Shown here: piece after piece, positions 5,381 through 57,639 of the stretch | Numbering within the stretch: position 1 is the stretch's first letter | How the letters are laid out: the number at the start of each line of letters is the position of its first letter | Source of the DNA: Mytilus edulis | Lineage: Eukaryota | Direction of reading: 5' to 3' | Length of the DNA: 64,000 nt | NCBI RefSeq assembly: GCF_963676685.1 | Contig: NC_092350.1 | Coordinates: 51,460,001 to 51,524,000 of the forward strand | Made by a program: the position numbers and the translations under genes | Notes under the pieces: model-generated | Seen by the model: only the letters and a program-made list of their open reading frames with translations | The model's database searches: none | Told to the model about the DNA's origin: nothing

Positions 5381-5535
5381 TGTTATTTATTATTGTAAAA
5401 ATGTATCACTTTAACATACATGAACGATTTATTTTTTTATTTTTGAAAAGACATACATGTTTGTATATATTTTCGATAATTCGTAGCAATTTAAAGTTCA
5501 TTATCACCATGTCCTTACAAATAAACGTAACTTAC

Positions 5536-5761
5536 ATGTGTACTCAGTTATGTCCGTATCAGTTGGACAGGGTTTGCCACCATTGTCGGGATACCTAAGA
5601 ATTACCCTTTCTTTAGATCGTGCTCCAAATCCATATACCTCGCTCCACTCGCTCCATTGCGATAGTTGACAATCAACTTTTTCTTTTGTAAATAGAAAAC
5701 AGTGATTTGAACCAATCATAAACACCAAAACTATAACTAACAGATCAATACGACCCACCAT
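5536..5761 (-). CDS. Secreted TSP1 + vWA domain protein, exon 1 (signal peptide + TSP1/spondin-like repeat)
   Basis: ATG at 5761 and a hydrophobic leader (MVGRIDLLVIVLVFMIGSNHC). TSP1 pattern DCQLSQWSEWSE...RSKERVILRYPDNGGKPCP. Phase-1 donor T|GTAAG at 5536/5535. join(5536..5761,3829..4266,2422..2720) = 963 nt, open, 320 aa. Confidence 0.9.
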
Positions 5762-6793
5762 GGTGTCTCTGTATGATACTTTACCAATGTTACACCAAAA
5801 ACAAAGCTTTGTTTATGTTAACTAAAATTTCCTGATACAATTAATGCTTACGACACTTATTAGAAAAAATATCTTTCTACACCAATCCAATTTCCAAGAA
5901 CCTTATATAGCCTAATAAAGACTACTATTTTGAGGAAATAAACAATTTGACAAATAGGATTTTTTTTCTACTGCGTGAGTAGTGGTATTGAGAGGGATCG
6001 AAAGCTACAAAACCAACAAATACCACAAATAGGAACAACACGTAGACTGATGTAATGAAAAGCCACCAACAGGAACTAAATTAAATGACGTAACGAAATC
6101 TACAAATAAAAACCACATGACATAATATACATATGTCACATGACACCTATCAAATGATACGTTGAAAAATGAGGCATTTTATTTAATATAAACATTTGCA
6201 TTAACATTTGCATTTAAATTGTTTGTGCAGTGCAAGACTGAAATCAAAGAGAGTAAAAAAAAAATTTTATAACGGAACGATTTAGAAGAGATAAGAAGAT
6301 GCCAAACCATTGAATATATAATTGTACTCAAAGAATACTAGATAATAGGATATTTGATAGAGTATGGAAATACATTAAAATTCACATTTTAATGCGTTTC
6401 ACGATCCTTATGAAAGTCGGAATGACCTTAAATTTAAGAATTAAAAAAACCACTCCAATCCAGACTCATTGATTATCTGATGAACAGATACCTTTGAGAC
6501 ATTGTTGTGTTATATCTATGTCCCCGTACTCAACAGTTTATAAAAATTACAACCTACATTTTTACTTTGACAGGTAAATCATGTTTGAGCCTTAATTACA
6601 TCGAGTTCGGAGCATTCTACAATGTTCTAGTCAAACCTTTGAAGGATATCTTATGCTTGATATATACTTTATAGGTTAATATTTTGCGTAAGTGATTACT
6701 TTTTCCGTCTTGTTAATCTTATTCAATGTCCAGAATAAAATAAAGTATTTGCCACTGAACATAAAACGAATAGCCAACAATTCTAATATGTAA

Positions 6794-8172: not shown

Positions 8173-9464
8173 TTAAACAGATTTTATCAACATACATTAA
8201 TCTCGAAGGTAAAGTCAGGCCTTCAATAAGGAACAAACATTATTGTATCACTGCACGTTTAAGAATACCACTGGAAAGTTGTTATACGATCATGTTTATA
8301 AAAGTACAAAAGTCATTGCGTTTCGTATATTAAGTGCAATACGAATGGCATTGATTTATCATATAACACGAGGTTAAGTAATGAGAAATTATATCATAGT
8401 TTTATTTTAACATGCTATTTACAATGTTTGGTGATCTGTTATTCACACGACGTAATGTGTGTGGTTATTCGTGGAACTTATTAACATAATTTTGTATAAT
8501 GCATGTGGGCGGTGATATGTCCGCGAATGTTCATCAACAACATATATAATATCCAAGTCATTAGGACAGAACAAGACAATGAAATGTGACAAAATGTTCG
8601 GCACAAAGCATATCATTCCATAGTATGCATTATTGATGATACATTCAATTCAACTATTATAATTCAATAAACCATGTATATTCAACTGAACAAAGTCGCA
8701 GATGGTATAATATTTGACATTCCGTCTGTCTACCAGCTTTGTGCTTTCATTTTAAGCGGATTATCTTCAGATTTGATTTAATGTTACATCTCACCTACAC
8801 TACGGATAAAGTCTATAATCGCATAATCTGAAATATAAAACCAATTTTGCGAGGGGACTGGTAATAATATATCATAGCTATTACTGAATACTAAAATACA
8901 ATACCGCGATAGCGTCTCAGTTTATAATCGTATGTTTTTCTCTAATTTGAAATTATACTTCTGCTTACCATAACTATATAAGAGGAGGTTGAATATCAAA
9001 ATAATATGATAGAAGGTCCACTTTTGCCAGAAGGGATTAAAAAAAATATCCAATAACAATTCTGGTCGCTTGGATTGCATTTGTTATCATATCCTTTTCG
9101 GAGTACAAAGGTTTGGTATCTTTTACCAGTATTCGAAAATCAAAAAGTATTATTATTCTATCGAAAAAATCCGTAATATGTGCATTTGATATTAGTCTGA
9201 GATATATATATATATATTAGTATTTATAATTTAGACTTTTGTCCTAGATATGTGCATGCAATCTTTAAATTTTAGTGCAAACTTGATGAAAACGACAGAA
9301 TTGGACTCCTTTTGATATCTTTTCATAATCATCATATTTTTTCGTCACGACTTTACCGAAAAAGACTGTTTTCTACAAAATGTTTGTGGTGAAATTGTCA
9401 ATATATGCATGGTAAATGGACTAAGTAGTTATCAAAGGTACATGTACCAGGATTATAATTTAAT

Positions 9465-9508
9465 ACGCCGGACGCGCCTTTCGTCTACATAAGACTCATC
9501 AGTGACGA
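9465..9508 (-). ncRNA. Type I hammerhead ribozyme motif (copy 1; stem I and stem III mismatches)
   Basis: CGTCA CTGATGA GTCT-TATGT-AGAC GAAA GGCGCG TC CGGCGT. Catalytic boxes intact, but GAAAC>GAAAG and the first stem I pair is mismatched. Confidence 0.85.
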
Positions 9509-9819
9509 TCAACTCAAAACAGTTATAAAGCCAAGCAAGTACAAAATTAAAGAGCATTGAGGACCCAAAATTCCAAAAAGTTGTGCAAATACAGCTAAAG
9601 TAATCTATTCCTGGGATAAGAAAATCCTTAGTTTTTCGAAAATTTCAAAAGTTTTGTAACAGATAATTTATAAAAAATGACCATATAATTGATATTCATG
9701 TCAACACCGAAGTGCTGACTACTAGGCTGGTGATACCATCGCGGACGAAACGTCCACCAGCAATGACATCGACCCAGTGGTGTAAATAGTTATCAAAGGT
9801 ACCAGGATTATAATTTAAT

Positions 9820-9865
9820 ACGCCAGACGCGCGTTTCGTCTACAGAAGACTCATCATTGAGACTC
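9820..9865 (-). ncRNA. Type I hammerhead ribozyme motif (copy 2; C3>A core change)
   Basis: TCTCA ATGATGA GTCT-TCTGT-AGAC GAAA CGCGCG TC TGGCGT, with palindromic stem III ACGCGCGT. Confidence 0.8.
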
Positions 9866-10891
9866 AGATAAAAAAAGTTATAAAGCCAAACAAGTACAAA
9901 GTTTAAGAGCATTGAGGATCCTAAACTCCAAAAGATTTGTGCCAAATACAGCTAAAGTAATCTATTTCGTGGGATAAGAAATTCCTAAGTTTTTCGCAAA
10001 TTTCAAAAGTTTTGTAACAGAAAATTTAAAAATGACCATGCAATTGATATTCATGTCAACACCGAAGTGCTGACTACTGGGCTGGTGATACCCTCGGAGA
10101 CAAACGTCCACCAGTAGTGGCCTTGTGTCATATCTAAACAGACGAAATATGGGTCTCATGGCCATTTATGGTCAAGTATATATGTTTTTCCATTTTTACC
10201 ACGTCAAAATGCTATAACAAATCAACTTTCTGCACAAACGGTGTCCAAACGAGTGACAAAAGATACCAGCCTCACTAATTAGTCAAAAGGAAACTCAAAC
10301 GCATTGGCCAAAAATGTCAAATTATATAATAATTTTCATTTACATAGAGTGCATTTCTTTCTAACCAAAAATTTGTAAACGTTGTGTGGCGTTTGTTGTT
10401 GTTTTCTAAAAGCTAGAAAAGTGGAAACACATACATCCTTTAATCAGTGTTTACTGACCCTGTTTGAAATTTCAATAATGCATGCACATGTTGTTTGTAA
10501 ACAGACTTTTCTACACAGCTAACGTAGAAACAAATACATCGTTTCATCAGGTTGAAGTTAGAAACAAATGTAGCGTTTGTACTACCAAACGATGAACGAC
10601 AAACTGTAGACGCATTTCTAGCAAACTGTAAACTTTGCAAACGTAGGTTAGAAACAAATGATCAAAACAAAGAAATGCACCCATAATTTGGTGTTATGTG
10701 ACATAAGTTATTACTTTGTTAAACATTATGTTATAAAAATATGTTAAAGCTATTCAAAGAATTTATTATATTTTATTTACAAATTATTGTAAAACTAACT
10801 TGTTCCAGAACAGTTTTTTTTAAATAAATTCCTTGCAAAAGTAAAAATAAATGTTTCATAGCACTGATCTCAAAGTTACTTTGTAAAATAT

Positions 10892-11319
10892 TCAAACTTT
10901 TTGTATAAATATTCCCATGAATGAACTTCTAACACCGCCTGAGCCGTCATAGAGAAAATTGTCTGCATAATGGTTTTCGGTTTGAATCCAAACATGATCC
11001 CCCTTGTTGACAGAACAAAGTACAGTTCTTGTAGTTCCAAAATGGCCAGCTCCTGAACCTAAATTCGTAAACTGCTTTCCTTTAACAATGTTGTCGACTC
11101 TCAGTTCGGTCTGTACTGCTTTCGAAGTGTAAGTCTGAATGGTCCAAATAAATAGGTATACTCCTGGGATTGGGGCAACAAATATTCCGTCTCCTGTGTT
11201 AAAGTTATTGCCTTCGTCAATAAACTGAGTGTCGAACTTTACAATAGAGTAGAGATTTAGATGTCTGCTTCCACTTAATTCAACATAAAAAATCGGGCGT
11301 TTCATTTCATTTTGAACTC
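10892..11319 (-). CDS. Secreted C1q-domain-containing protein (C1qDC), exon 2 (globular C1q domain)
   Basis: Acceptor tttttatag| at 11320/11319, in frame. gC1q motifs IVKFD..F.DEGNNFNTGDGIFVAPIPGVYLF, VNKGDHVWI and SSFMGIFI. TGA stop. Confidence 0.93.
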
Positions 11320-12533
11320 CTATAAAAAAGGTAAAAAAAAATCATAGCTGAAACTAAATTTGCTACCAGATTGTTTTTTCAAAACTTAATAGATAACATA
11401 ATGTCTAAAAAATTATACATGCGTAGATAACATTCTGTCAAAATGAATTAAATTTTCCGTAGACTCTTAAATGTTTAAACAACATTTTGTGTTTTGATCG
11501 TATTTTGAGTGAATTTCATTTGGCAAACAGTACAAATATTTTCAAATTTTAACAGATAGAGGGCTAATTTCATTCATCAATTTTCATATGTCAATAATAT
11601 ACAATGAAAAAACACAGCCATGGTTTGGTGTATCAGCTGTCAGATATATCTTTTGTCAGAATTGATCAATTGCTAAAATTTATCAAAAACGAGAAATGAT
11701 GTGGTGATTAAGTATCACTTTCAAACATTCAAACTGTAACAGCTTTTTAATTCCATATATTGAAATTATCAAAAGTGTTACTAAAATAATCTTGGATGAA
11801 TAGAAAATCTACAATGCAATATAGATATTTTATTATTTTATTATGTTTTAAAATACGATTCTCTCTGCTCTATTATTTGCCCAGTCGTTTGAGCTATCCG
11901 ATCATTTCCAGCAACTGAGGTTTTCATAAACGGGTCTTCTCAATATGTTTCCTTGTTTGTTATTTGTTTTTTTTTTTTTTTTATGTTTTGACATTATCGT
12001 TTGCTTAATTACATCTGTACATTTTCTATTTTTAATTTGTGTACACGTATAATTACTGTCCTAAATACGCTTGAATAAATTGTATTGCAATGCCTTATTT
12101 TTCAAGTGTTTCAGCAGAAAGGGGCGACAAAAGTATGGTATAGTGAACAAAACACTTTTTTAAGAAAACATGTCTATATCTTTATGTTTTTCTTTTGTTT
12201 GTTTCTTTTTGGCTTCATGCTACAATTCCTGTCAAATTATATGAAAATTGCAACAAAACGGACCCAATTTGGTTTAAAAAAAAGATGCAATACAAATTTT
12301 GTTATAATAGTAACTAATGTTCCGTTATTTCATTTTAACAATAATATCATTTGAAATAAAAAATTGTTATAACACATTTGAAAAATATATACTTGCCTTA
12401 TTCAACACATAAAAATTGAATAAATTTTCTGTAATATGAATTGCTCAAAAACCAAATATAACGATATTATTGAAAGATCTAAAGTATTCAGTCATGTTCA
12501 AATCACAAATCTATGATCTTATGTATTACTTAC

Positions 12534-14386: not shown

Positions 14387-14599
14387 TAGAGACTATTTTA
14401 AAACAAGCATTGAAGGAAAACATCAGACACTAAAAGGATTTACATTCACAACACTTACCGTTATCTTGATTATATGTTTTCGTTACATAATAAAGAATTT
14501 TCTGAATTTACTGCAGAAATTTAATCAAAGAAACATACTTTAAATAAATCAAAAAACGGTAATAACAGTCTTTTCCTAGATTCAGGTATTTCGGTTTTA

Positions 14600-15010
14600 C
14601 ACGGGAAACTTCAAACTAAATTTTACGACAAAAGGACGATTTTTCGTTCCCTATTGTTAATTTTCCCTTTTTGGGGATACTCCTTTGGTATCGTCTTGTG
14701 GTGTTTATATTTCACAACTAGTTCGCTATGCCCGTGTCTGTTGTGACGTTTTTTGATTAAGCCAGGGATTTCGTTGCCACAAATTACTTAGAACCTTTAC
14801 TAAATTCTTCCATAGATACATTGTATAAAGATTTGATTTTGAAATCCTCATTTTTACGGAAATGTTGTTCACCGTGGCCGTAAATTTAGAAACGATCCTG
14901 GTAAACTTATCGATCCTTTAAATAATTACTAAAAGGTTAAAAGGTTACCAATTCAACACTGTAACTAAACCATTAAGTATTGCTTTTATTGGTATTAATA
15001 TTGGTTTTGT
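14600..15010 (+). mobile_element. Penelope-like retroelement RT C-terminal fragment (decayed)
   Basis: Frameshifted translation KLQTKFYDK(R)DDFSFPIVNFPFL..GVYISQLVRYARVC, the typical PLE RT thumb motif. Confidence 0.75.
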
Positions 15011-16326
15011 TATCAGTAAATTAAAAGCAAACTAAATATTATTGATACATATACACATGCATTGATCTACAATCTGTCTATACCTGTATCTATAACTGCG
15101 AGTACTCTCAGATAAGTACTTTGTGTCTTTTTGTTGTTGGGATAAACAAGTACCCGGCAACGTCCACTCTATGTTTTTGTTAGATGTTTTTCTATTTGTA
15201 TCCATCTGATGAGTTAAGACGTTTTCAACTGATTTTCATAGTTCGTTCTAATGTTGTACTGTACCACTATCCCAGGTTATGAGGAAGTTTGTGATCCCAC
15301 TAACATGTTTAATCACCCATATTCTGTATGTATGTGCCTGTCTCAAGTCAGGAGCCTGTAATTATGTGGTTGTCGTTTGTTGATGTGTTGTATAGTTGTT
15401 TTTCGTTTATTTTATGTACCTTAATTAGGCCGTTCTTTTTCTCGTTTAAATTGTTTTACATTTGTCATTCAAGGACTTTAATAGATTACTATGTGTAATA
15501 AGGCTTTGCTCATTGTTTAAGGCCGTACAGTTACCTATAGTTGTTAATTTCTGTGTCATTTTGGTTTCTTGTAGAGAATTGTCTAATTGGCAATCATATA
15601 TGTACCACATCTTCTTTTGCACGTACATGCGAACCTTTTTTTTTTAAATCACAACATCAATGGTTGTAATTGTTTGTTCAACTAAGTAAAAACTACGAGT
15701 ACATTTTGTAACTATTAAAAGCATAGTGTTAAATGTCGTTGTAAAAATATTCATAGTACTTTTGAAAAACATAATGTAGGTTCAATTCGACTTTAGATAA
15801 TTAAAATTAAATTAAAATAAAATATCAACTAATCTAATGTACTGGTAACCTATTTTGACATCTAATTAATGCGCTCGTGGTTTAAATATCAAAACGTTAA
15901 AGTTCACCACGTCTTTCAGTACAAATAAAAGATAATCCAGTTTAAAAGATTATTTACTTAAAATAACTAAAATAATTTATTTTAAAGGTTGTTTATTTCC
16001 GAAGATTTAGAAACAATGTGAATTTGGGCGAGTTTCTTACATTGAGGAAAGAGCTTTAGTTTAAACATATTTTAAGTAGCAAAAGGGATTGGACACAAGT
16101 TATAACAACATTAGAGACGTCCTCTCCCAATACTAATATAAACACAAAGTACATTAGATAATGACGAAAAAACATAGTAGGAATGCATGTAATACATCCT
16201 ACAAACGAAAATTAGAAATACAAAGAAAACAAATACAATGATATAAGGAATAATAATGAAAAAACTGGACTAGAGTGAAGGGTTGTAAAGTAGAAATTTA
16301 GAATGTTAATTGTTTAAATCTTTGTG

Positions 16327-17030
16327 TTATTCTGATATAAGATAGTACGGACTCAAAAATGTCTTTGTTTTGCTGAAAAGGAAGGCCACCGTCACCAGTT
16401 TTAATAGAAGCTCAATGGATATAGCATGTCTTTCTAATTTTGAAAACAGTATTTCTCTTGCTTCGTTGTGAATAGCGCTCTCTAAAAAATAGTGTATACT
16501 GTCCTCAACAGGGTGGCCACAGCTGCGTGCGGGACTGGGTTTAATATTAACACGATGTAAATCTGAATTCAAAGAACTGCACATATTTCTCAAACGTGTA
16601 TGAATGATATTAAGTTTTCTATCCCCACAACTAAAATAGGAAGGTGGCTGTATCAATTTGGACTTCATCTTTCGTTCAAAAAATATTTATATTTTTGGAC
16701 GTACGTATGTCGGGGTTAAGGCTATTCCATTCAATAGTAGTGGATGGAAAAAAGGATTTCTAGTTATGTCTAGTCTGTAACCGGGTACTACATAATTATT
16801 ACTGTTTCGCAAATCGTACTTAGATTCTTGATCAACAAGTGTGGGCATTAAATCACAGAGATAATCAGGGGCAGTCCCATTATGTAAAGAATAGAACATA
16901 TTGAGCTTTCTGGACTTTCTTCTGTCCACAAGCAATTGCCAGACAGTTTCAAAATATATAGCTTCCCGACTAGCAAACACGGGCAACCCAGTTACTAATC
17001 TCCCTGCTTCTAACTGAATATGTTCTAAAT
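16327..17030 (-). mobile_element. 5'-truncated LINE (CR1/L2-group) ORF2 C-terminal fragment
   Basis: IQLEAGRLVTGLP..SREAIY.E..W..L.DRR..RKL.MFY....G.APDYL, then IHTRLR..CSSLN.DL...SCGHPVED..HYFL. Frameshifted, A-rich 3' flank. Confidence 0.85.
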
Positions 17031-19218
17031 TGTTCTAAACATGTTCTAAAGGAAAGAGCAATCTGATCAATTTGAACTGTTTGAAGTAGGAAGTTTTAAA
17101 GAGGAATATATATACTCAGTGTCGGATTCAGGGAGTGGGGGTCGTATGTCCCCTTTCTTTATTGGAAAATATATCTGGTGTTTTTTTGGATTTTTTTTTA
17201 TTGGGGGGGAGGGGAGGGGGGGGCGCAAAATAATCAAAAAATATTCTACTGTTTTATTTTCAAAAATCCTTCATTTGCACATGATGTTAGTGCTTATTCA
17301 CAAATAGCATACCACAGCTCTGCTAAGGATCAAACTGTAAGAAAACTTTTCATAAATTGCTACAACAAAAAAACCGCAAAATGCATATTAAGATACTATA
17401 TTTTTTTACTGAATTCGTTCAGAAACAAATGTTTGAACATGGTTTTGGTTTACTCAGCATAATTTCAACATAAAAATACATAAATTCAGTACTAAATTTA
17501 CCTTAATCGTTGTCTCTCGTTAATATTGTATACTAATAATACGAATGTGTGTTCCCTCTTCAGTTTATAGTTCTGTGGAATAACATTTTGTAAAGTTTAA
17601 GAAACAATAAATTTGCTATCCTTTTTTTTTAAATATTTTTACAGATGCGACTGTTTCTTTCAACAACAGCAAAACAATGAAATACATGTAAACGACATAC
17701 AGCCATTAAAATGAAAGCTTACATCAAACATTTAGGTTTTCAAATATAATCAAACACTGTCAACATCTTCAGATATTTGCTGTGAAAAGTGGATCCGTTC
17801 CATTCCGAAATATCTGATGCACAAACAAAGGATTCGTGCTCTGTCACCCAACGTGACATAATAGGAGAATTAAGGACAGATATGTAAATGATAATGATAT
17901 ATACCATGGTTGTCTCATTGGCAATATACCACTTTTCTGCATTTTCTTATGCCAAGGAAAGGGTTCGTATCATATATGGTTAGCATATAAATTGGTCGAT
18001 TGTGTTGGCTTTTAAAAGTCACATTTTCCATATATAAATGCATTTGTTTTAAAATGAATCTTAATTAAAATATTGAAATTCCGTTCCATCCTTAGCTAAT
18101 AATCCATCTAATGAAAACATTACATAAACAAAATATTTTAATATACTGTTTGAAAATACAGAAACTCCTATACTTAATCATACTTGAATATATTTAACCC
18201 TATTATTCATATTTAGTCAACATATATGGGTACAAATACGAGCACGTGTAATTATTAATTCGATCCATGTTAAAATCTCAATACCTCTGTATAGAATTCG
18301 GTTATAATGTTAATTTTAAATTTAATCGGTTACACATTTATTTTAAACAGACGTACAAAGATCAATTGGTAATATGCATCATATGTATTCTAAATTGATT
18401 GAAAACAAATTAATCCCTTTTACTATTTATAACTCTACAAATTAAATTAACACGATTAAGCTTTTCAAGACCATGCACCTGCTGCAAGAAAACGAAAGTT
18501 TTTTTTCGGTCACTTTTAGAAATCGATTTTAAAGATAATCTGAAAAGGGGGAGGGCTGAGTAAGGGTTCGTTTCCAACCTTTTAAACGTAGAATGTGTAG
18601 TAACTTTGATGTGTGTTCAATAACATATTTAGTTTTAACTTTATTATTAGTTATCAAAACTACGTCGAAACAAGCGCCGTTATAACGTACAAGATTTGCC
18701 AAATTAGAATAGACCTAGATCTCCCTTTGATCACATTGTTGATATCTTGATAACAGTTGTTTGAAAGATATAAAATATGAATTGCCAACTTGTTTCTGAA
18801 CATGTTCAGGTTTATATAATTTTACATCAATAAGCTAAAACTAGCAGCCTTTTTTCTTTGATTTTCTACGTATTTATCAAAATTTTAATCCGTTATTATT
18901 TGAGTCGATAAAGGTCCGTAATTTGCCATACTAACTCTGTCTCCTTTATTGAGCCTCAGAACCACGGAATTCATGCCATTGTCGTAATGAAGACCAGAGC
19001 TGGCACCAGAATACAGCAAAAGTTTATACTGGTTATATTTATTACCGTTCTTATTTTTCTGGTTAACTACTCGTAAACCGACTTTCTAGTGTGGTACCAC
19101 GCTTCGTCAATAATGACGAAAAACATACCATGTTCCTGTAATCGGAACTGTGAAAATTCCATTTGATGGGTCATATGCGTAACCTTGATTAGTTATCCCT
19201 CTTCCAAACTTTATTGTC

Positions 19219-19323
19219 CAGTGGCGGACATGTAGTTGGACCCCCCCCCCCCTCCCCCCTTCCTTATTTTTGTCCTGGGTTACGACCCCGTCCCCTATTT
19301 TTAAACGGCTGAATCCGCCCCTG
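19219..19323. mobile_element. CAGTGGCGGA-type mini MITE inside the C1q domain
   Basis: TIR CAGTGGCGGA/TCCGCCCCTG with a TTGTC direct repeat on both sides. Excision restores SHATIKF. Confidence 0.85.
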
Positions 19324-19590
19324 TTGTCGCATGAGAACCTAGGTTTTGAATGCTATGTGACACTTGTGCAGTGAATGAAATGTCCAGTGTTAGTTTTACT
19401 GAGTTGTATTTGTTTTCTAGGGCAACAATGTTCTTGTTAACTTGTTTCCGCCTGGATGACACCGTTGATGTTACTTTCTCTCTTGATCTGCTTATTGTTT
19501 GGTCAAGTGCTTCACTTTTGTATCATGGTGGCTTGTTTTCCCAGTACAGGTTTCCTTTTGAGATTTGATGATTAGTTCTATAATTATTTA

Positions 19591-34702: not shown

Positions 34703-34774
34703 CATCTGATAGGATATTAATACTTTTGGTGAACAAAAAGATTTAGACTAAGTGAAATTCTAAAAAAAATTGAA

Positions 34775-35125
34775 AACAACACGTTTAAAATTTCAAGCAT
34801 CATAAGCGCTTTTCTGGATTTACGTTCATCAGGAATTAACGCTCAAAGCCGAACATTTGAAATCCGAGGATGTATAAGTACCGAAACCGTTGAATAGCTA
34901 TATGACAAACACACCTAAAGGAAATAGCCAAATTCATTTATAGTCAACTTTGCCTGAGGGAGTTGAAACCTTAGTTTCTTAATAATTTCAAAATGTATAA
35001 ACGGACAATTTTAGAAAGGTTTGTTAAATCATGTCAGTACCGAAGTAATAACTCCTGAGCTGATGATAGTACCATCGGGGACTGATAGTCCCTCAGCAGA
35101 GGTATCGACCCAGTGATATAAAAAA
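34775..35125 (-). mobile_element. Retrozyme family B unit with degenerate hammerhead (about 34795-34843)
   Basis: Minus strand GAGCGTT..CCTGATGAACGTAAATCCAGAAAGCGCTT. The distal block catgtcagtaccgaagt...gacccagtg is homologous to family A. Confidence 0.7.
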
Positions 35126-36579
35126 ATGTGTATACTCGTTTTACCTCAGACTTACAATTTTGCTTCTATTCCTCTATGTAACCATGTAATACACCTGTTA
35201 TACTGGCCTTGTGGTCTTCGTCTGTCATCGCAAAGGAACATTTATGGCAGTCCTAAAACTATAAAAATCAGTGCAAACTTTGGTCTTGAAAGAAAACATC
35301 ATAAAGTTGAAATACATGATGAATAATAGAAAATACCTATTAAAACCAACTACATGGTATGTATTTTTCTCATTGTTGAGGGGCGTATGGTGACCTATAA
35401 ATGCTCAAAAACCACCTCATTTTATCTCTAGTGGATATTTGTCGCATTGGCAAAAAAAAACAAATCTCCTTGTTTTATATCACATACATTTTCCCTACTT
35501 CTTAAAGTTAAGATAACATACCATATTTGAGATTTACGTTATTGGCCCCACATTTCAATGGTTAAAAACCTTAATTAAAAACATAAAAATCAAGAACGCT
35601 ACGTATACTGCTGTTTGTCATTGCATGCTTCAACTTGATGACTTATATTATTAATGCCAATGACTAAGTTTGGATCAATAAAATGTCTGCATCACTTCTT
35701 CAATAATTTTTACCAATATTGTAATGATACGGGCATGTGAATCTAGATCGATCAAAGGAATTCTGCCGGCATCCACGCGATGAGAGGTTGAAAGGTGTAA
35801 AATAGCCAATCTTCCAACAAAGATTCTTCGGATTTCTTCATGATTTAGTCCGGTAGACATTTTTTTCAAGTTGAGTATTGACGGAGAAGTAAGGAATACG
35901 GACATTTATTAGGAAACAGGATTGATTTTGTGGACGTCTAGAATGAATAGCATCTTTAGACTTGCTTTAGTTTGTGGACTTTTTGTTAGCTGTGTAATTT
36001 CTAAAAATATAGAAAAGGAACAAAATAAAGGTAGGTCTATTTGATTTTTCGCATCTGATTAGACTTCCTACATTTTGTCTGTTCCTGGCATTTCAAATCT
36101 CACTGTACAGTGCGGGCTTTTTATCAATGTTGAAGGGTGTCTGGTGACCTTAGCACTTTACAACTTCGTCTCATGGATAGTTTTCCCCTTGTCACTCATA
36201 CGACACCTCTTTTGTGTATTAAATGTTTTGAACAAGTATTTTGTTGGTTTTTTTTTTATTTTCTACAGTACATAAGTAAAAATAAAACCGTCAAAATTTT
36301 GTGACAAATATATTTTTACACAAAACCTTAATTTATCTAATAAATTAATTAAATTGAGAACGGAAATTGGGAATATGTCAAAAACAAAACCCAACCAAAA
36401 AGCAGATTACAGCCGAAAAACACGAACGCAGCGAGAAAAATCCCGCACTGGGAGGTTGACCTCGGCCTCCTCCTAGAATGTGTACTAGTTCAGTGAACAT
36501 GTTTAGGACATTTAACTTCAATTAATTGTATGTGCGTTTGAAAAGTTTGATGATAATCGTAAAAAAACAATCCATTTAA

Positions 36580-36800: not shown

Positions 36801-38861
36801 TTAAATATATGTTGAATTAAAATAATTGGAACATGAAAATATTTAAACCCTTTGAATCCAGAGTTATATTGACCCTTTTTCTGGGTCTCGTTTGATTGTT
36901 GTCCCATTGACGTATATTTTCATACTTTTATTAAATTACTTTTCTTTTAATTTTCTTTTTGACATTTTTGTTGTTATACATCGATCGAGTTACAACGCTT
37001 TCATAGATATTCGGGAACTACTTGTATGTTTAAGCTTTAATATGGTATTCTTACATGTACATGTGCTGCATTTAACAAGTAAAGCAGGATCTGTTTACCC
37101 TTCCTGGGCGCAAGAGATCACTCTTGGTTTATATGAGACAGAAGGTTACACGGTGTTACACGGTGTTGCTCTATGTTGTGTTTTTTATACTGTTGTTTGG
37201 TTTTTTTTGTTTATAGTTTGTCATCGTATTATAAGTTTGCGTATCTCTTCAAGTATTTTCTGCCTCTCTCCTGCTGTTGATTGGATCTGTCCACTACAAT
37301 AACTTGACGAAATATGACAACACATGCATGATTTTTAAAAGACACTTTATTTCGTACTTAGCATTTTTGCACCGGTTTTTAAAACATCTTAAATTATGCG
37401 AAGCATACAATCCTATAAAAGGCAACGATATCTTGGTAATGGATAAGTATTAAAGAATATAATTAGAAAAAAAATCTTAAAAAATGAAATATTTTCAATT
37501 TACTTGAGACCATTAAAAGTCAATTGTTGCGACTATTTTCATTTCAATGAGAATTTTATCTTAAAAGATGACTGACTATTATAAATGTTTTATAGACTCA
37601 CAGAATCCTCGTGTGTCTATCTACAACTATTTCTTATGTCTACCATTATAAAACAAGTCTGCAATAATTGGCGTAAAGATATCCTACAATCGGTCCAAGG
37701 AAACCAAAGGAAAATATTGTGATCAAGATTTAGTTGTAGTTTGTTGTATCAAACTATAACTTATAACTTTGTTAGAATCAAATAAAAAGAATTAAGAACT
37801 GAAGGAGAGGCTGAAGGTCTCAAAAGGATATTTACACCCGTGAGTCCAAGAAACATAAGACAAATAGGTGTCCATAAAACAAAACATAGATAACTAACGA
37901 CTGAGCAACACAACTGAGGTAAAAACTAGGGTTGATCTCAGTTGCTCCTCATTTTGTGATGCTCATATAAGTTCTAGTATCTAGTGATAGTTTCCACAGT
38001 CGCCATGACGACCTGGTTGGTCACTTATTGTCTTGCTTTGTAAACGTTCTGTTATATAAAACATGGAGATATGGTTTGATTGCCTATGGAAACACATTAC
38101 AACAGAGTCCATATGACGTGGATAAAAGCAACAATTATTGGTGACCGGACGGCCTTTAACGATGAGCAACACCCATACCTTATAGTAAGCTTTAAAAAGC
38201 TCTGACAACATGTGGAACAATTCAAACGGCATGGTTAATGATGATACAACTAACCAAAAACAATTAGGACAGAAAGTCGCTGAATAACACCTTGACTTCG
38301 GTCATGGACATATATATAGAACGTTGTAGGCTTCAACAGTTTTTTAGCACTCAACCTAGTTTGGAATGGCTTGACTAGTCAGATTGGCACGACGCACAAA
38401 CAACAGTTTACAATAAGACAAAAGATAAAAAAAATTGCGAGAAAGTGTAAATTGTTGTTATTTTAGAATCGCGATATAGCATCTATTGAGACTAGTTATA
38501 TTTGTTGTCTTATTGTTTGCTACATGTTAACGTCCAGTGGCAAATATTGTATGCAATTTTGGACGAGTGTTATTTTTTGAGTTGCAGTTTGTTGATTACA
38601 TGCTACACATAACACGAAAACTGAAGCCTATAACAATATAATAAGCTAGATTGTAATTACACATCCTTATTGACACTTTTATGTGTAATATCCTGTACAA
38701 ATGTTTACAATAAAACATACATGACCTTTTTTATTTGAGGTGAAGTAACACTATGAATTATTTAACAACATATCAATTAAAAAATCAACAAATTTGTGTT
38801 ATTGCTTTCAAATATGAAACTTATCTGATTTGCACTCCGGTACTGTCGTATTATCGACTAA

Positions 38862-48400: not shown

Positions 48401-48859
48401 AAAGATTTAAACCGATTTATTTTTCCGAACAAAGATTGCAATAAAAATCATGTAAAAAAATAGACTAATATATTGCCAAAAAGAAAATCGACAAAGTTCA
48501 AAATATATTCAATCGTCATTTGCCATACACAGAAAAGAGTAGACTTTTTCTAAGTGTTAATTTAAATAAAAATTAATTTGTACCGTACAAAGTTTATAGA
48601 AGAGGGACTAAAGAATAAACAACACGAACCCCATCAAATATAGCTGTTACTATATAGATATATTTCTGAAATAGAACATTTTAATCATGACCAGTGTTCT
48701 TCACAAAATGAAGAATAATCCAATTGAAATATACTATATTTTTAAATCTAAAAATGAAAATAATCTTTATATATAATGGTTTTGTTGTAGTGTAATGTAA
48801 TACCGCTAGTAGTATAGCTACAGCGCTATTGTTCTTGTCACGAAGAATTAATAAAGTGA

Positions 48860-51781: not shown

Positions 51782-52697
51782 CAGCATTGTTGAAAATACA
51801 AAATCCAACATTTTTTTTCTATGAATCATGGCGTTAGTCTTATTAATTTCCTTGAGCAGAAATGAGTAATATCTGGAAGTTCATAGCAGAATGTCTTTTG
51901 AAAGCTGGATATATATAAATAGCGTGAATTATAAAAAAAAATCAGCCTTGCACATGCCGTAAGAATAATACATCAGTATGACAGATCATTAGAAATAGTT
52001 TTCCAATATTTTCCAGGTCTTCGTTTACCATAAAAGATCAGACCAGTGAAATGCATATTAGAATAAGGAGCATTCAGCATTGTTGAAAATACAAAATCAT
52101 ATCTTTAAAAAAAAAATCCAACATTTTTTTTTCTATGAATCATGGCGTTAGTCTTATTAATTTCCTTGAGCAGAAATGCGTAATATCTGGAAGTTCATAG
52201 CAGAATGTCTTTTGAAAGCTGGATATATATAAATAGCGTGAATTATAAAAAAAAAATCAGCCTTGCACATGCCGTAAGAATAATACATCAGTATGACAGA
52301 TCATTAGAAATTGTTTTCCAATATTTTCCAGGTCTTCGTTTACCATAAAAGATCAGACCAGTGAAATGCATATTAGAATAAGGAGCATTCAGCATTGTTG
52401 AAAATACAAAATCATATCTTTAAAAAAAAAATCCAACATTTTTTTTTCTATGAATCATGGCGTTAGTCTTATTAATTTCCTTGAGCAGAAATGCGTAATA
52501 TCTGGAAGTTCATAGCAGAATGTCTTTTGAAAGCTGGATATATATAAATAGTGTGAATTATAAAAAAATCAGCCTTGCACATGCCGTTAGAATAATACAT
52601 CAGTATGACAGATCATTAGAAATTGTTTTCCAATATTTTCCAGGTCTTCGTTCACCATAAAAGATCAGACCAGTGAAATGCATATTAAAATAAGGAG
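51782..52697. repeat. Recent tandem triplication of a ~315-bp unit
   Basis: Units start cagcattgttgaaaatac at 51782, 52075 and 52390 and are nearly identical. A single diverged unit lies at about 63340-63603. Confidence 0.95.
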
Positions 52698-54040: not shown

Positions 54041-55610
54041 TGTTTGTGTATTTGTTATATCGAATGAAAATTATTTTCAATAATTATGTAAGTTGCAACT
54101 TTCGCTTTTAAAATCCTTCGATCAGTCAGTCATTCCAAGGGTTTGCTTGAGGGATGATGTTTACCAATTGCGTTAACAATGAATCTTTTTATCCATAATT
54201 TGCTATAGGAATAGGAAAATAAAAATGATGATTCGGGTAAAATGACGTAACAACAATACTAATTTTTCAAATTTACAATTTTATTTCGATCGGAAATTAT
54301 CTATGTGTATTCTATGTACTTCTTACAATTCAAGACATATTATATGTTTTATAAAATGTGCAAACACAATTGTTGCTGGTTGAAGGCTAAACAGAAAAAG
54401 CAACGTCCATACTTTTTCTGGCAATCTGTATCTTGAGCGGTTCTGGCTGTTTCTGTAAGATTTTTCTTTAGTTGTTTTACTATTGTACAAGTCACTTTAA
54501 GTTTTGAGATTCCCCTGTATAGTTTTGTCATAAATATTTTACCAGTACTAGCAAAGTGGCCTACCCTGTCAACACAAATGTTGAGAGTACGAACTTTTAA
54601 CGCGGTAACGTCCAGTAGCAAGTATTTTTATGCATATTCAAAACGAGTGTTATTTTTTAAGTTGCAGTTTATTGATAACATGCTAGACAGAACACGAAAG
54701 CTGAGGCCTATAACAGTATGATAAGGCTGTGTTGTAATTACACATCCTTATTGACACTTTTATATGTAATATCCTGTACAAATATTTACAATAAAACAAA
54801 CATGTCCTGTTTATTGGAGGTTAAGTGACACAATGAATTATTGAACATGTATACATTAAAAAATCAACAATTTTTTGTTATTGCTTTCAAATATGAAACC
54901 TTATTGGATTTGAGTTCTGGTACTGACGTATTATCGACTAAATGCTTTCATAAATTAAAAAAACTCTGCAAAAAATTAACATATTATGCAATACTATGCT
55001 CTGTCATTTATATTTAAAAATTCATTGCTATTGATTGCTAACCTTGTTTGCTTGATATCCTGTAGCAAATGATTCATGCAAACTCAGGACGAGTACAAAT
55101 GAAACAAATAAAGCACTTAGACCAAGTTACCTAATATTTGTTTCATGCACATTTGATTCGGTAGTTGTTAAGACACAGAACCAAGAAACGCTATTTCTTC
55201 CTCAAAATTTCTACTATATTAATATAAATAAGGCTTGAATGTCATATCAAGTCACAAAATAAGTGTACGAAGGCCAGTTAATGTCAAAGATGTCAAATTC
55301 AAGTTGTTGATAACGTCATGTGAAATGTCCAGATTACTTTATCCGTTTCATTTACCAAAAACTAAACATAATTTTGAAAGGATGGAATTTATTCTTTTTG
55401 AAATTTAATAATTGTTAACCGAATATCGATTATTAACTTATTTTTGCAATTATTACAATATAGAACAACATATTTATAAGGCTTCGGTTTAATATGCATT
55501 CATATAACAATCATGTTTATGTTGTTCACCAGTGAACCGGAATATGACGTGATAAGTTCGTGCCAAACTTATCAACGTCGATGATATGGTCGGGTCAAAG
55601 TTGTTTTAAG

Positions 55611-55900
55611 TAGTTATCAAAGGTATCAGAATTATAATTTAATACGCCAGACGCGCGTTTCGTCTACATAATTAGACTCACCAGTGACGCTCAGATCAAA
55701 AAAGTTGAAAAGCCAAACAAGTACAAAGTTGAAGAGCATTGAGATCCCAAATTTCAAAAAGTTGTGCCAAATACGGCTAAGGTAAATCCTTAGTTTTTTG
55801 GAAAATTCAAAGTTTTGTTACAGGAAATTATTAAAAATGACCATATAATTGATATTCATGTCAATACCGAAGTGCTGACTACTGGGCTGGTGATACCCTC
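55611..55900 (-). mobile_element. Retrozyme family A, single 5'-truncated unit with hammerhead at 55644-55692
   Basis: Colinear with the 9787-10096 unit. GAGCGTCA CTGGTGA GTCT...AGAC GAAA CGCGCG TC TGGCGT (A6>G in the core). Confidence 0.88.
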
Positions 55901-57639
55901 GTAACCTGACCTCACAAAGCCGATTTCATGAAGCGCGGAGCAGAGTGATAAAGAAAGTGGAAACACTTATATTTTCGGCACATTTTTATCAACATCTTCA
56001 AGTCAAAGTTTCTTGAGGTATGGCATCAAACAATATTTAAATTTGGAAACATAAGACACGTGTACAGTTCCTTCAATGTTTTTCTTCCACCTTGCCAAAA
56101 AGATATAATCTTTAATATCTCGCATTTTCGTCATTTTGATCGGCATCCACTAGTCTGAAGTTTCGTGTTATATGAGATGAAACTCTGTCTTGGAATATCA
56201 AAGATAGTGACACTTTTCCCGCCCCTTCGAGATACTACGTCCTGCTTACTTGAAATATCCATCATTAAAATATCACGCACATATTTGAAATTTTGATCAA
56301 ATTAAGTCATCAATCGTGATTGAGCGGGGGTATAATTAATGAACATTTGTAATAGTGCATCTTGTTTAAATCTCATTTCCTAAATGTGAATTCAATTAAC
56401 TTGTTTTGTAAATGTTGATTTAGTTCAAAATGCGTGCCTTTGTTTTAACTACAGTACAGTGAATTACGCAATTGTTCGTATTTTAATTTTGTAGGAGCTG
56501 TAGTATCAGTGATTTTATTACTGTATTATAAATCAAAGCGTCCCTCATTGACCAAATTTGCAAAGAAAATTATTATACAATCCACTTCATCTCACTAGAG
56601 CTTAAGTACAAATTAATAAAACCAATAGAAAACAACATCTTTGTCGTACTATGGTTGACGTTACGTAAGAGTAGTTTGTGAATTTTCTATTTGAAAAATC
56701 TTCCATTTACGTTAATTTCTAGTTATGACTTGGAAATGGAAGGAATCAGTGAAGTGCAATTGTAAAACAATTTTGTAAAATTAACGTTTTAAATTGTATT
56801 TTGTCTATGTTTGATTAATCTATTTAGAGAGATGTTCAAATGGTGTCGTAGAGTTGAAAAGACAAATCAAATTTAGTGTTTGCGAGATATGAGTTAGCAA
56901 ACAAAGATTTTGCCGATTTATTTTTCCGGGCCAAGATGGCAATATGAAACCATGTAAAAAAACAGATCAATATATTGCCAAACAGATGAATGGTTAAAGC
57001 GCAAATGTTCTGTTCATGCAGAATTGTTAAGGTGCAAATGTACGTACGTGCATGTCATGAAAAATGGTTAAAGCGCAAATGTGTTTTTTATTTATTTTTC
57101 TAAATCTAATTGTTCTGTGCATGTTTGTAAACTATACTTTGGTGAGGATAAAGGATGGCGCCTGAATTTTTTTTAACTCACTGCATTGGCCTAAGTCAGT
57201 ATTCTGTTGTTCATTGGTTGTCGTTTATAGTGTAGTTCTTACGTGTCTCTAGTTTCTCGTTTTTTTTTTTTTTTTGTATATATAGGTAGTTGTTTTCCCT
57301 GTTTGAATTGAGCGCACTTATCATTTTGGGGTCTTTTATAACTAACTGTACCGTGTGAGCAAAGGCTCTATGTTGAAGAAGGTATAAAGGTCAATTATTA
57401 ATACAGTGTGACTTAAATAAAGAGTTCTCTCATTGGCACTCATACCACGTCTTTTTGTGTCTTTTTTCATAAAAAATGCATGGTTAAAGTTCAAATGTAC
57501 TTGACATGACGAATGGTTCAAGGGCAAAAGTTTTCAGTCATGTGGTAAAGCTAAAGAATTTGCATTTTAGACGTAAAATAAGGTTTTAAATAAAACTAGA
57601 AATCAACATCGAGTTAAGAAAACATCCATTTCTTTTTAC

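Follow-up and report, generated by a model that had tools for sequence, protein, structure and literature searches.

Our preferred reading, which we hold to be probable, is that a tandem array in a 64,000-nt stretch of Mytilus edulis DNA (contig NC_092350.1; henceforth the window) is a decayed insertion of a retrozyme family whose insertions stop shortly before a 63-nt segment also present at the 5' start of the Penelope-like elements (PLEs) of the Naiad type, and that it was likely copied by a Naiad reverse transcriptase (RT) binding the hairpin predicted for this segment and starting a few bases 5' of it. The segment opens the Naiads and adjoins the point at which the insertions end, and for this reason likely names both the enzyme that spreads the retrozyme and the place where copying starts. 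With somewhat less assurance we lean toward a wider view, in which mussel retrozymes would be ribozyme circles that have captured a deeply conserved Naiad hairpin as internal origin of reverse transcription, the RT priming ~5 nt upstream, rolling round the circle and writing tandems. If this is true, the hairpin would represent a previously undescribed RNA family and, as a portable signal, would make any circular RNA integrate.

The array occupies positions 9422-10121 (-) and contains 1.97 units, arranged head-to-tail with a period of 355 nt. Aligned by blastn with a concatenated family unit (88.8% identity), it extends from a random 5' start at unit position +59, counted from the ribozyme cut site, to the fixed 3' end at +43. 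Read along the minus strand, it comprises a 5'-truncated and mutated copy of the Naiad-type hairpin, which lacks the first helix arm and is predicted to fold differently (10074-10121, z = -1.2); an upstream type I hammerhead (9820-9863, cut site after 9826); a would-be 355-nt monomer between the two cut sites (9471-9825), including a full copy of the 63-nt hairpin common to the Naiad 5' start (9719-9781; 82.5% identity to Naiad-A over 63 nt, E = 9e-12; by alignment the core is mutated here, and the same long hairpin is predicted with z = -2.3); a downstream type I hammerhead (9465-9508, cut site after 9471); and a tail from the cut site to the fixed 3' end (9422-9470, 42-43 nt plus a 6-nt local insertion), whose 3' end, from the sequence and end mapping, would be the start of reverse transcription. 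The two local units are 87.6% identical, as expected from two identical units decaying apart; the local monomer is 93.5% identical (6.5% off) to the majority of 68 other distinct units, for which the median is 97.5% (2.5% off). No open reading frame longer than 68 codons overlaps the array, the autonomous Naiad ORF (GIY-YIG, CxC, DKA, RT) is absent from it, and no target duplication was seen in its flanks. A first-pass annotation of this DNA had described two tandem noncoding units of ~360 nt, each with a type I hammerhead on the minus strand, and had assigned them to the metazoan non-LTR retrozymes of the mussel kind; all of this agrees with the layout given here. A search of the 1.37-Gb genome for the 34-nt majority ribozyme of the family gave 7,826 exact copies, and none for its reversed control, which is far beyond chance. 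We take the locus to be an ordinary dead copy, a decayed two-unit insertion of a known mussel non-LTR retrozyme that is likely inert.

Both hammerheads, one unit apart, are found by the Infernal search with Rfam Hammerhead_1 that the annotation had proposed (28.2 bits, E = 0.002, for 9820-9863; 24.7 bits, E = 0.03, for 9465-9508), although both remain below the gathering score of 34; intact units of the family reach 33 bits. The stem II (GTCT/AGAC) and the GUC triplet described there are present in the two copies, the palindromic stem III ACGCGCGT is present in one and missing from the other, and the stem I given as GCGTCA/TGGCGT is found in neither, as the helices quoted are those of the family majority, seen in the 60 + 48 hammerheads listed from loci L001-L030 (these loci overlap, and some hammerheads are counted twice). 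Each local ribozyme carries two lesions. The core of the right (upstream) copy reads AUGAUGA, with C3 changed to A, and its stem I has a C-C mismatch; in the left (downstream) copy, 15.2 and 16.2 form a G-G mismatch (AGGCGCGT), and the first stem I pair, which adjoins the cut, is an A-C mismatch. Cleavage depends on C3, which forms a pair with G8, and the C3G change abolished activity (PMC11167929); families A, B and C preserve the 15.2-16.2 pair through compensating changes. In a double-hammerhead arrangement the most that the intact left core could achieve is cleavage at 9826, and the cut at 9471 would be left without a good core-substrate pairing. Working ribozymes at the window locus were rejected on account of these core and helix lesions and, judging from the sequence, release of a monomer or circle is unlikely, so that the array is an improbable source of the circular RNA that had been considered for it. 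The accompanying statement that such elements cleave as dimers fits the amphibian retrozymes; the mussel ribozyme, in the portion of the work covered, cleaved as a single copy at ~0.1/min (PMC7229834).

The RT at 14.6 kb belongs, as judged from tblastn, its translation and the 3' end of its family, to a 5'-truncated remnant of an older Naiad-type element at 14414-15618 (+), which consists of a C-terminal RT up to a stop at 15035 followed by the 3' UTR, and which is separate from the retrozyme. The identity of this family to Naiad-A is 31-33% in the window and 45% in a better copy; its relatives have a GIY-YIG-like N-terminus, and the full-length ones open with a diverged hairpin (3 of 15 loci, by eye). 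No nucleotide match of the family to the retrozyme monomer was obtained with blastn and, since there are thousands of candidates genome-wide, the nearness of the remnant to the array means nothing. The earlier suggestion that this RT is the kind of element able to mobilize the array was right as to clade, a Naiad-type PLE, and probably wrong as to partner; a link of the retrozyme to this RT family was discarded, the sequence link being to another, young Naiad family. It is accordingly very improbable that the window locus is a working retrozyme that releases a circle and is mobilized by the RT family at 14.6 kb: the two recognizable hammerheads and a Naiad-type remnant whose full-length relatives carry a diverged hairpin are what one would look for, but each ribozyme has two lesions, of which those affecting the 9471 cut would not be rescued, the RT family lacks a blastn match to the monomer, and no flank reads mark the locus in four RNA runs, where 94-99% of the reads on it continue into other sequence. 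This expression negative is weak, because the runs come from other animals, in which the insertion may be absent, and the neighboring C1q exon is likewise uncovered. As a separate observation, a lone CUGAUGAG half-core occurs at 15208-15215 (+), in the 3' UTR of the older Naiad family; it is kept in most copies, without a GAAA partner, and is comparable to the HHR_half_core cases in the part of Craig et al. 2021 that was covered.

The positions at which insertions end were mapped in the first 30 ribozyme matches in genome order, 28 of which are loci with a central family-A array. The 3' ends fall at +36..+50 past the cut site in 21 of 23 distinct cases, mostly at +41..+43, while the 5' ends are spread over +11..+306 with 0 of 23 in the +36..+50 bin; two other, partly overlapping samples have the 3' end in the same bin in 15/19 and 10/14 cases. 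Among 85 distinct tails, a further unit follows in 54 cases; in the other 31 an AT-rich +40..+43 gives way to unrelated flank. Hundreds of unrelated continuations at +41..+43 are seen in RNA reads. The window copy ends at +43, and three more family-A pieces in the window end at +42 or +43. Target-primed reverse transcription (TPRT) characteristically leaves such a fixed 3' end together with 5' truncation at random points. No excess of target duplications over the control could be recognized at the 23 loci (the longest shared flank word is 5.6 versus 5.3 for mismatched pairs, with two loci reaching 8-10 nt). The mapping suggests that reverse transcription starts inside the unit rather than at the ribozyme cut, the end that a linear monomer would have. 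In families B, C and D the ribozymes or tails are different and the hairpin is the same, and their few flank ends (4, 1 and 1, respectively) lie just before it, at +34 to about +44; as tail lengths differ among families and yet the ends stay ~4-9 nt upstream of the first hairpin helix, the ends follow the hairpin and not the ribozyme.

Family A copies are both dispersed and in arrays, from 0.3 to more than 9 units, and all four families A, B, C and D are present in the first 30 loci matching the shared-core pattern described below. Seven of nine long arrays are homogeneous within (99-100%), compared to a median of 97.7% between arrays, a difference that fits rolling and also fits recent local amplification; the other two are heterogeneous (96.5-97% within), which points to some local amplification or age. 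We give hardly any credence to the notion of a satellite-like repeat that arose a single time from a Naiad end and owes its spread chiefly to unequal exchange, an amplification at the DNA level of the kind proposed for vertebrate retrozymes. In its favor are the long arrays, of which some contain mixed units, and the model in the covered portion of Li et al. 2026 (10.64898/2026.07.22.740005); however, most loci in genome order are dispersed, have less than 2 units, are 5'-truncated and share one 3' end, which is a signature of reverse transcription and makes of local amplification only an add-on.

The identity of the probable partner emerges from the monomer itself, whose comparison with the 3,370-bp unit of the family we call Naiad-A gives a single substantial match, +45..+107 against the Naiad 5' start (56/63, 89%, E = 6e-19); a 21-nt match on the opposite strand (E = 0.003) was taken as chance. 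The starts of Naiad_Mgal and Naiad_Mcor in the covered part of the supplement of Craig et al. 2021 resemble the same retrozyme positions, and the shared-core pattern has 10,274 matches in the genome (control 0). The reference Naiad-A locus (L111, G000:C1:408000-417500) is a tandem of at least three copies with an intact 995-aa ORF, which encodes an N-terminal GIY-YIG (Pfam E = 0.0013, under the cut-off), CxC, DKA and a C-terminal RT; a PDB search with this protein returned 0 matches. Identity over 150 aa is 100% for 57 of 150 scored matches, and a 1,000-codon open frame is present in 18 of the first 30, so that Naiad-A is a young, intact element. A scan for the hammerhead core CUGANGA..GAAA found none in Naiad-A, nor did Rfam find a hammerhead; the silence of Rfam is weak evidence because it missed the ribozymes of families B and D, and the core-motif scan is the better test. 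The 5' start of Naiad-A was seen at 21 of 30 loci (eight had no match, and in one the match is a family C retrozyme), and the element's own 3' end lies directly before it in 21/21, some of which are tandem neighbors; all 12 distinct 3' ends that run into flank stop in a T-run just before the hairpin position. Naiad-B, a Naiad_Mgal-like family (24 matches, 8 examined) that begins with the same sequence as the published Naiad_Mgal, likewise has the hairpin directly after its own 3' end. The retrozyme, in summary, shares with an intact Naiad both a terminal cis element and the end geometry, with the 3' end just before the hairpin and 5' truncation. The earlier proposal that PLEs mobilize such elements is in this way supported as likely, and the exact partner may be another Naiad family than Naiad-A.

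Retrozyme A, Naiad-A and Naiad-B are predicted to fold alike, into a long bulged hairpin (z = -2.9, -3.4 and -3.9, respectively), and the insertion that Naiad-B carries in it is itself predicted to be a perfect hairpin. We have evaluated covariation with two alignments. The first has nine rows, in which Naiad-B is counted twice and few lineages are independent: in the two outer helices 98% of the cells are paired and 7 cells are changed on both sides (0/500 shuffles reach 7), and when pairs are counted, 4/11 are changed on both sides, a number reached by 34/500 shuffles. The second alignment, with metagenome rows, has 96.7% of cells paired and 3/20 pairs changed on both sides. These counts lean toward structure, because the structure was drawn from the same sequences. 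Stronger support, though obtained by eye, comes from the placement of the core and from paired changes in the outer helix. In the covered portion of the Craig et al. 2021 supplement the core 11-mer matches at Naiad 5' starts in 11/11 cases (10 named consensus starts and one tandem junction). The outer helix, in the consensus sequences covered, is replaced wholesale yet remains paired (by eye), with ACUGGG/CCCAGU here, ACCAAG/CUUGGU in Naiad_Mgal, ACCGAAC/GUUCGGU in Naiad_CGi and ACCAGG/CCUGGU in Naiad-1_Pfla. From the abbreviations, we take CGi to be an oyster and Pfla and Skow to be hemichordates. A metagenome scan yielded 120 loci, of which 7 are AT-rich and look like animal DNA with the hairpin; the rest were dropped as GC-rich chance matches. 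Two AT-rich metagenome contigs (L201, L234) contain a further ribozyme-tail-hairpin family, with a stem III of one pair capped by CGCG, like the amphibian type. Overall the comparison suggests that a covarying hairpin is common to the four retrozyme families and the published Naiads, with insertions ending ~4-9 nt before it.

No Rfam family matches the hairpin. Matches to mir-2 and Ysr35 were far below the gathering scores and were taken as chance, and a further ribozyme (HDV-like, twister), whether encoded on the plus strand or lying within the hairpin, was rejected, as there is no Rfam match and the required pseudoknot is not conserved in the Naiad-A alignment. These negatives bear on the improbable alternative that the hairpin is an RNA-processing signal (a new ribozyme, a nuclease site, or a promoter/terminator boundary) that makes an RNA 3' end at +42, followed by end-primed TPRT. 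The Naiad 5' start is indeed the place where other retrotransposons carry HDV-like or twister ribozymes (PMC7761336, in the portion covered), and sense-strand depth dips by about a third at +50..+60; against this, there is no read-end pile-up, ~900-1,900 sense reads lie deep across the +42 site in the three stranded runs, and a linear unit ending at +42 would alone give no multi-unit arrays.

The four raw RNA runs contain 5,928, 6,667, 10,053 and 3,239 reads of the family unit among 8.7, 8.3, 7.3 and 12.7 million records, respectively. Strand bias is ~2-11-fold in three of them, toward the ribozyme sense assuming the customary stranded protocol, and the fourth is unbiased; on that assumption the family is abundantly transcribed in the ribozyme sense. 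No conserved match to Pol III A/B boxes was recognized by eye. Head-to-tail joints are common in the reads, which, being short, fit circles and tandem read-through alike.

These results can be combined in the following mechanism. Intact arrays are transcribed in the ribozyme sense, as observed; the hammerheads would cut out 355-nt monomers and a host ligase would close them into circles, as described in the covered part of the study on mussel retrozymes (PMC7229834). From the mapping of the ends and by analogy with the anole Poseidon (PMC11167929), we infer that the hairpin serves as binding site for the Naiad protein, which would nick AT-rich DNA and prime ~4-9 nt upstream, and that the RT, passing the ligated cut site, rounds the circle until it falls off; such rolling would produce the observed pattern, with 3' ends at one point, 5' ends at random points and lengths from 0.3 to more than 9 units. 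A circle places the 3' end of the unit before the hairpin, so no template jump is needed and the RT can go round repeatedly. The copy in the window would afterwards have decayed.

A possible, if less likely, reading keeps the same Naiad partner and the same internal priming, and takes as template the uncut linear read-through of a tandem array, the hammerhead and the circles being passengers. It is in keeping with the RNA runs, in which reads cross the cut site without a drop and no read ends pile up there, with the tandems that Naiad-A forms without any ribozyme, and with the in vitro behavior of the anole Poseidon protein, for which ribozyme-dead templates inserted normally (PMC11167929): as cleavage is not needed there, the circle may be dispensable. 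A passenger role is harder to reconcile with the conservation of the ribozyme, which at +321..+355 (99%) belongs to the best preserved stretches of the unit and has been retained by four families, its stems compensated; mussel retrozyme RNA consists predominantly of circles (PMC7229834), and the contrast in homogeneity within and between long arrays also speaks against a linear template. We continue to prefer copying from a circle.

The element itself is already known; the fixed 3' end, the Naiad partner and the hairpin appear to be new within the literature covered, in which no description of them was found; a prior description elsewhere may exist. In the covered text of Cervera and de la Pena 2020 (PMC7229834), ~5,000 mussel ribozymes are reported in 350-390-bp repeats, with the single-copy cleavage mentioned above, abundant circles and RtcB ligation, and PLEs are only suggested as mobilizers. 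These M. galloprovincialis non-LTR retrozymes resemble the present family in their tandem units of 350-390 nt with one type I hammerhead each, thousands of copies, AT-richness and lack of LTR, PBS and PPT; unlike them the window copy is decayed, and the text covered names no partner family, fixed 3' end or Naiad-shared hairpin. By its size, the window family would correspond to the 353-nt construct of that study. The published 375-nt mussel Rtz (PMC4918200 Additional file 11, as covered) has the ribozyme and body of our family C (by eye), and family C and the window unit share 79% identity over 403 nt.

The Naiads, as described in the covered part of Craig et al. 2021 (PMC8557442), are similar in the 5' hairpin, the 3' end abutting the 5' start in tandems, the fixed 3' end, 5' truncation and the lack of a clear target duplication; they have no hammerhead, whereas the retrozyme has one and no ORF. 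Neither 'stem-loop' nor 'hairpin' was found in the portion of the main text covered. The non-autonomous Chlamys elements of the same paper share the 3' end of their partner, while the retrozyme shares the 5' start. The Xenopus retrozymes of Li, Clavereau and Pollet 2026 (10.64898/2026.07.22.740005, as covered) are also non-autonomous dependants of PLEs, shown by terminal homology; there the common part is a terminal pLTR and no mollusc was sampled, whereas here it is a 63-nt 5' hairpin and the partner has no ribozyme. For Poseidon PAc of Anolis carolinensis (Frangieh et al. 2024, PMC11167929), too, copying begins at an internal site of the RNA, upstream of a 3' stretch that is required and is regarded as the likely binding site of the protein, nicking is AT-rich and genomic ends mark the start sites; it differs in being an autonomous element of another PLE clade with the ribozyme in its pLTR, and its templates were not circular. 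The two questions of the 2020 paper, which autonomous element spreads animal retrozymes and how a circle without a free end is primed, receive named candidate answers in the young intact Naiad ORF, the 63-nt RNA element and the predicted start site. The results support the idea that hammerheads can parasitize PLEs without a ribozyme, and offer a first candidate cis-acting RNA for the Naiad clade.

Other features of the window can be listed briefly. Besides the array, family A is represented by a 5'-truncated piece of 0.9 unit with a mutated ribozyme, ending at +43 (55607-55901, -), and by two fragments that consist of the tail alone (+1..+42), are separated by 110 bp and each reach the fixed end (1013-1054 and 1164-1202, +); in a family-D unit at 34764-35128 (-) the hairpin lies on the 5' side, and the hammerhead, close to the 3' end, is degenerate. 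Short pieces of the Naiad-A 3' UTR lie at 37075-37130, 37879-37948 and 48607-48638. Two frames at 16327-17034 (-), for which there is no Pfam match, we take to resemble the end of a LINE-type RT. Exons encoding C1q domains are found at 10892-11341 (-) (Pfam E = 8e-16) and 19107-19352 (-) (Pfam E = 2.5e-5), neither with RNA reads, and the retrozyme array is 770 bp downstream of the former on the same strand; a Spondin-like TSP1 domain exon is at 5504-5812 (-) (Pfam E = 1e-8). Finally, a 315-bp tandem repeat without a hammerhead core, of 2.9 copies that are 98% alike, occupies 51800-52697.
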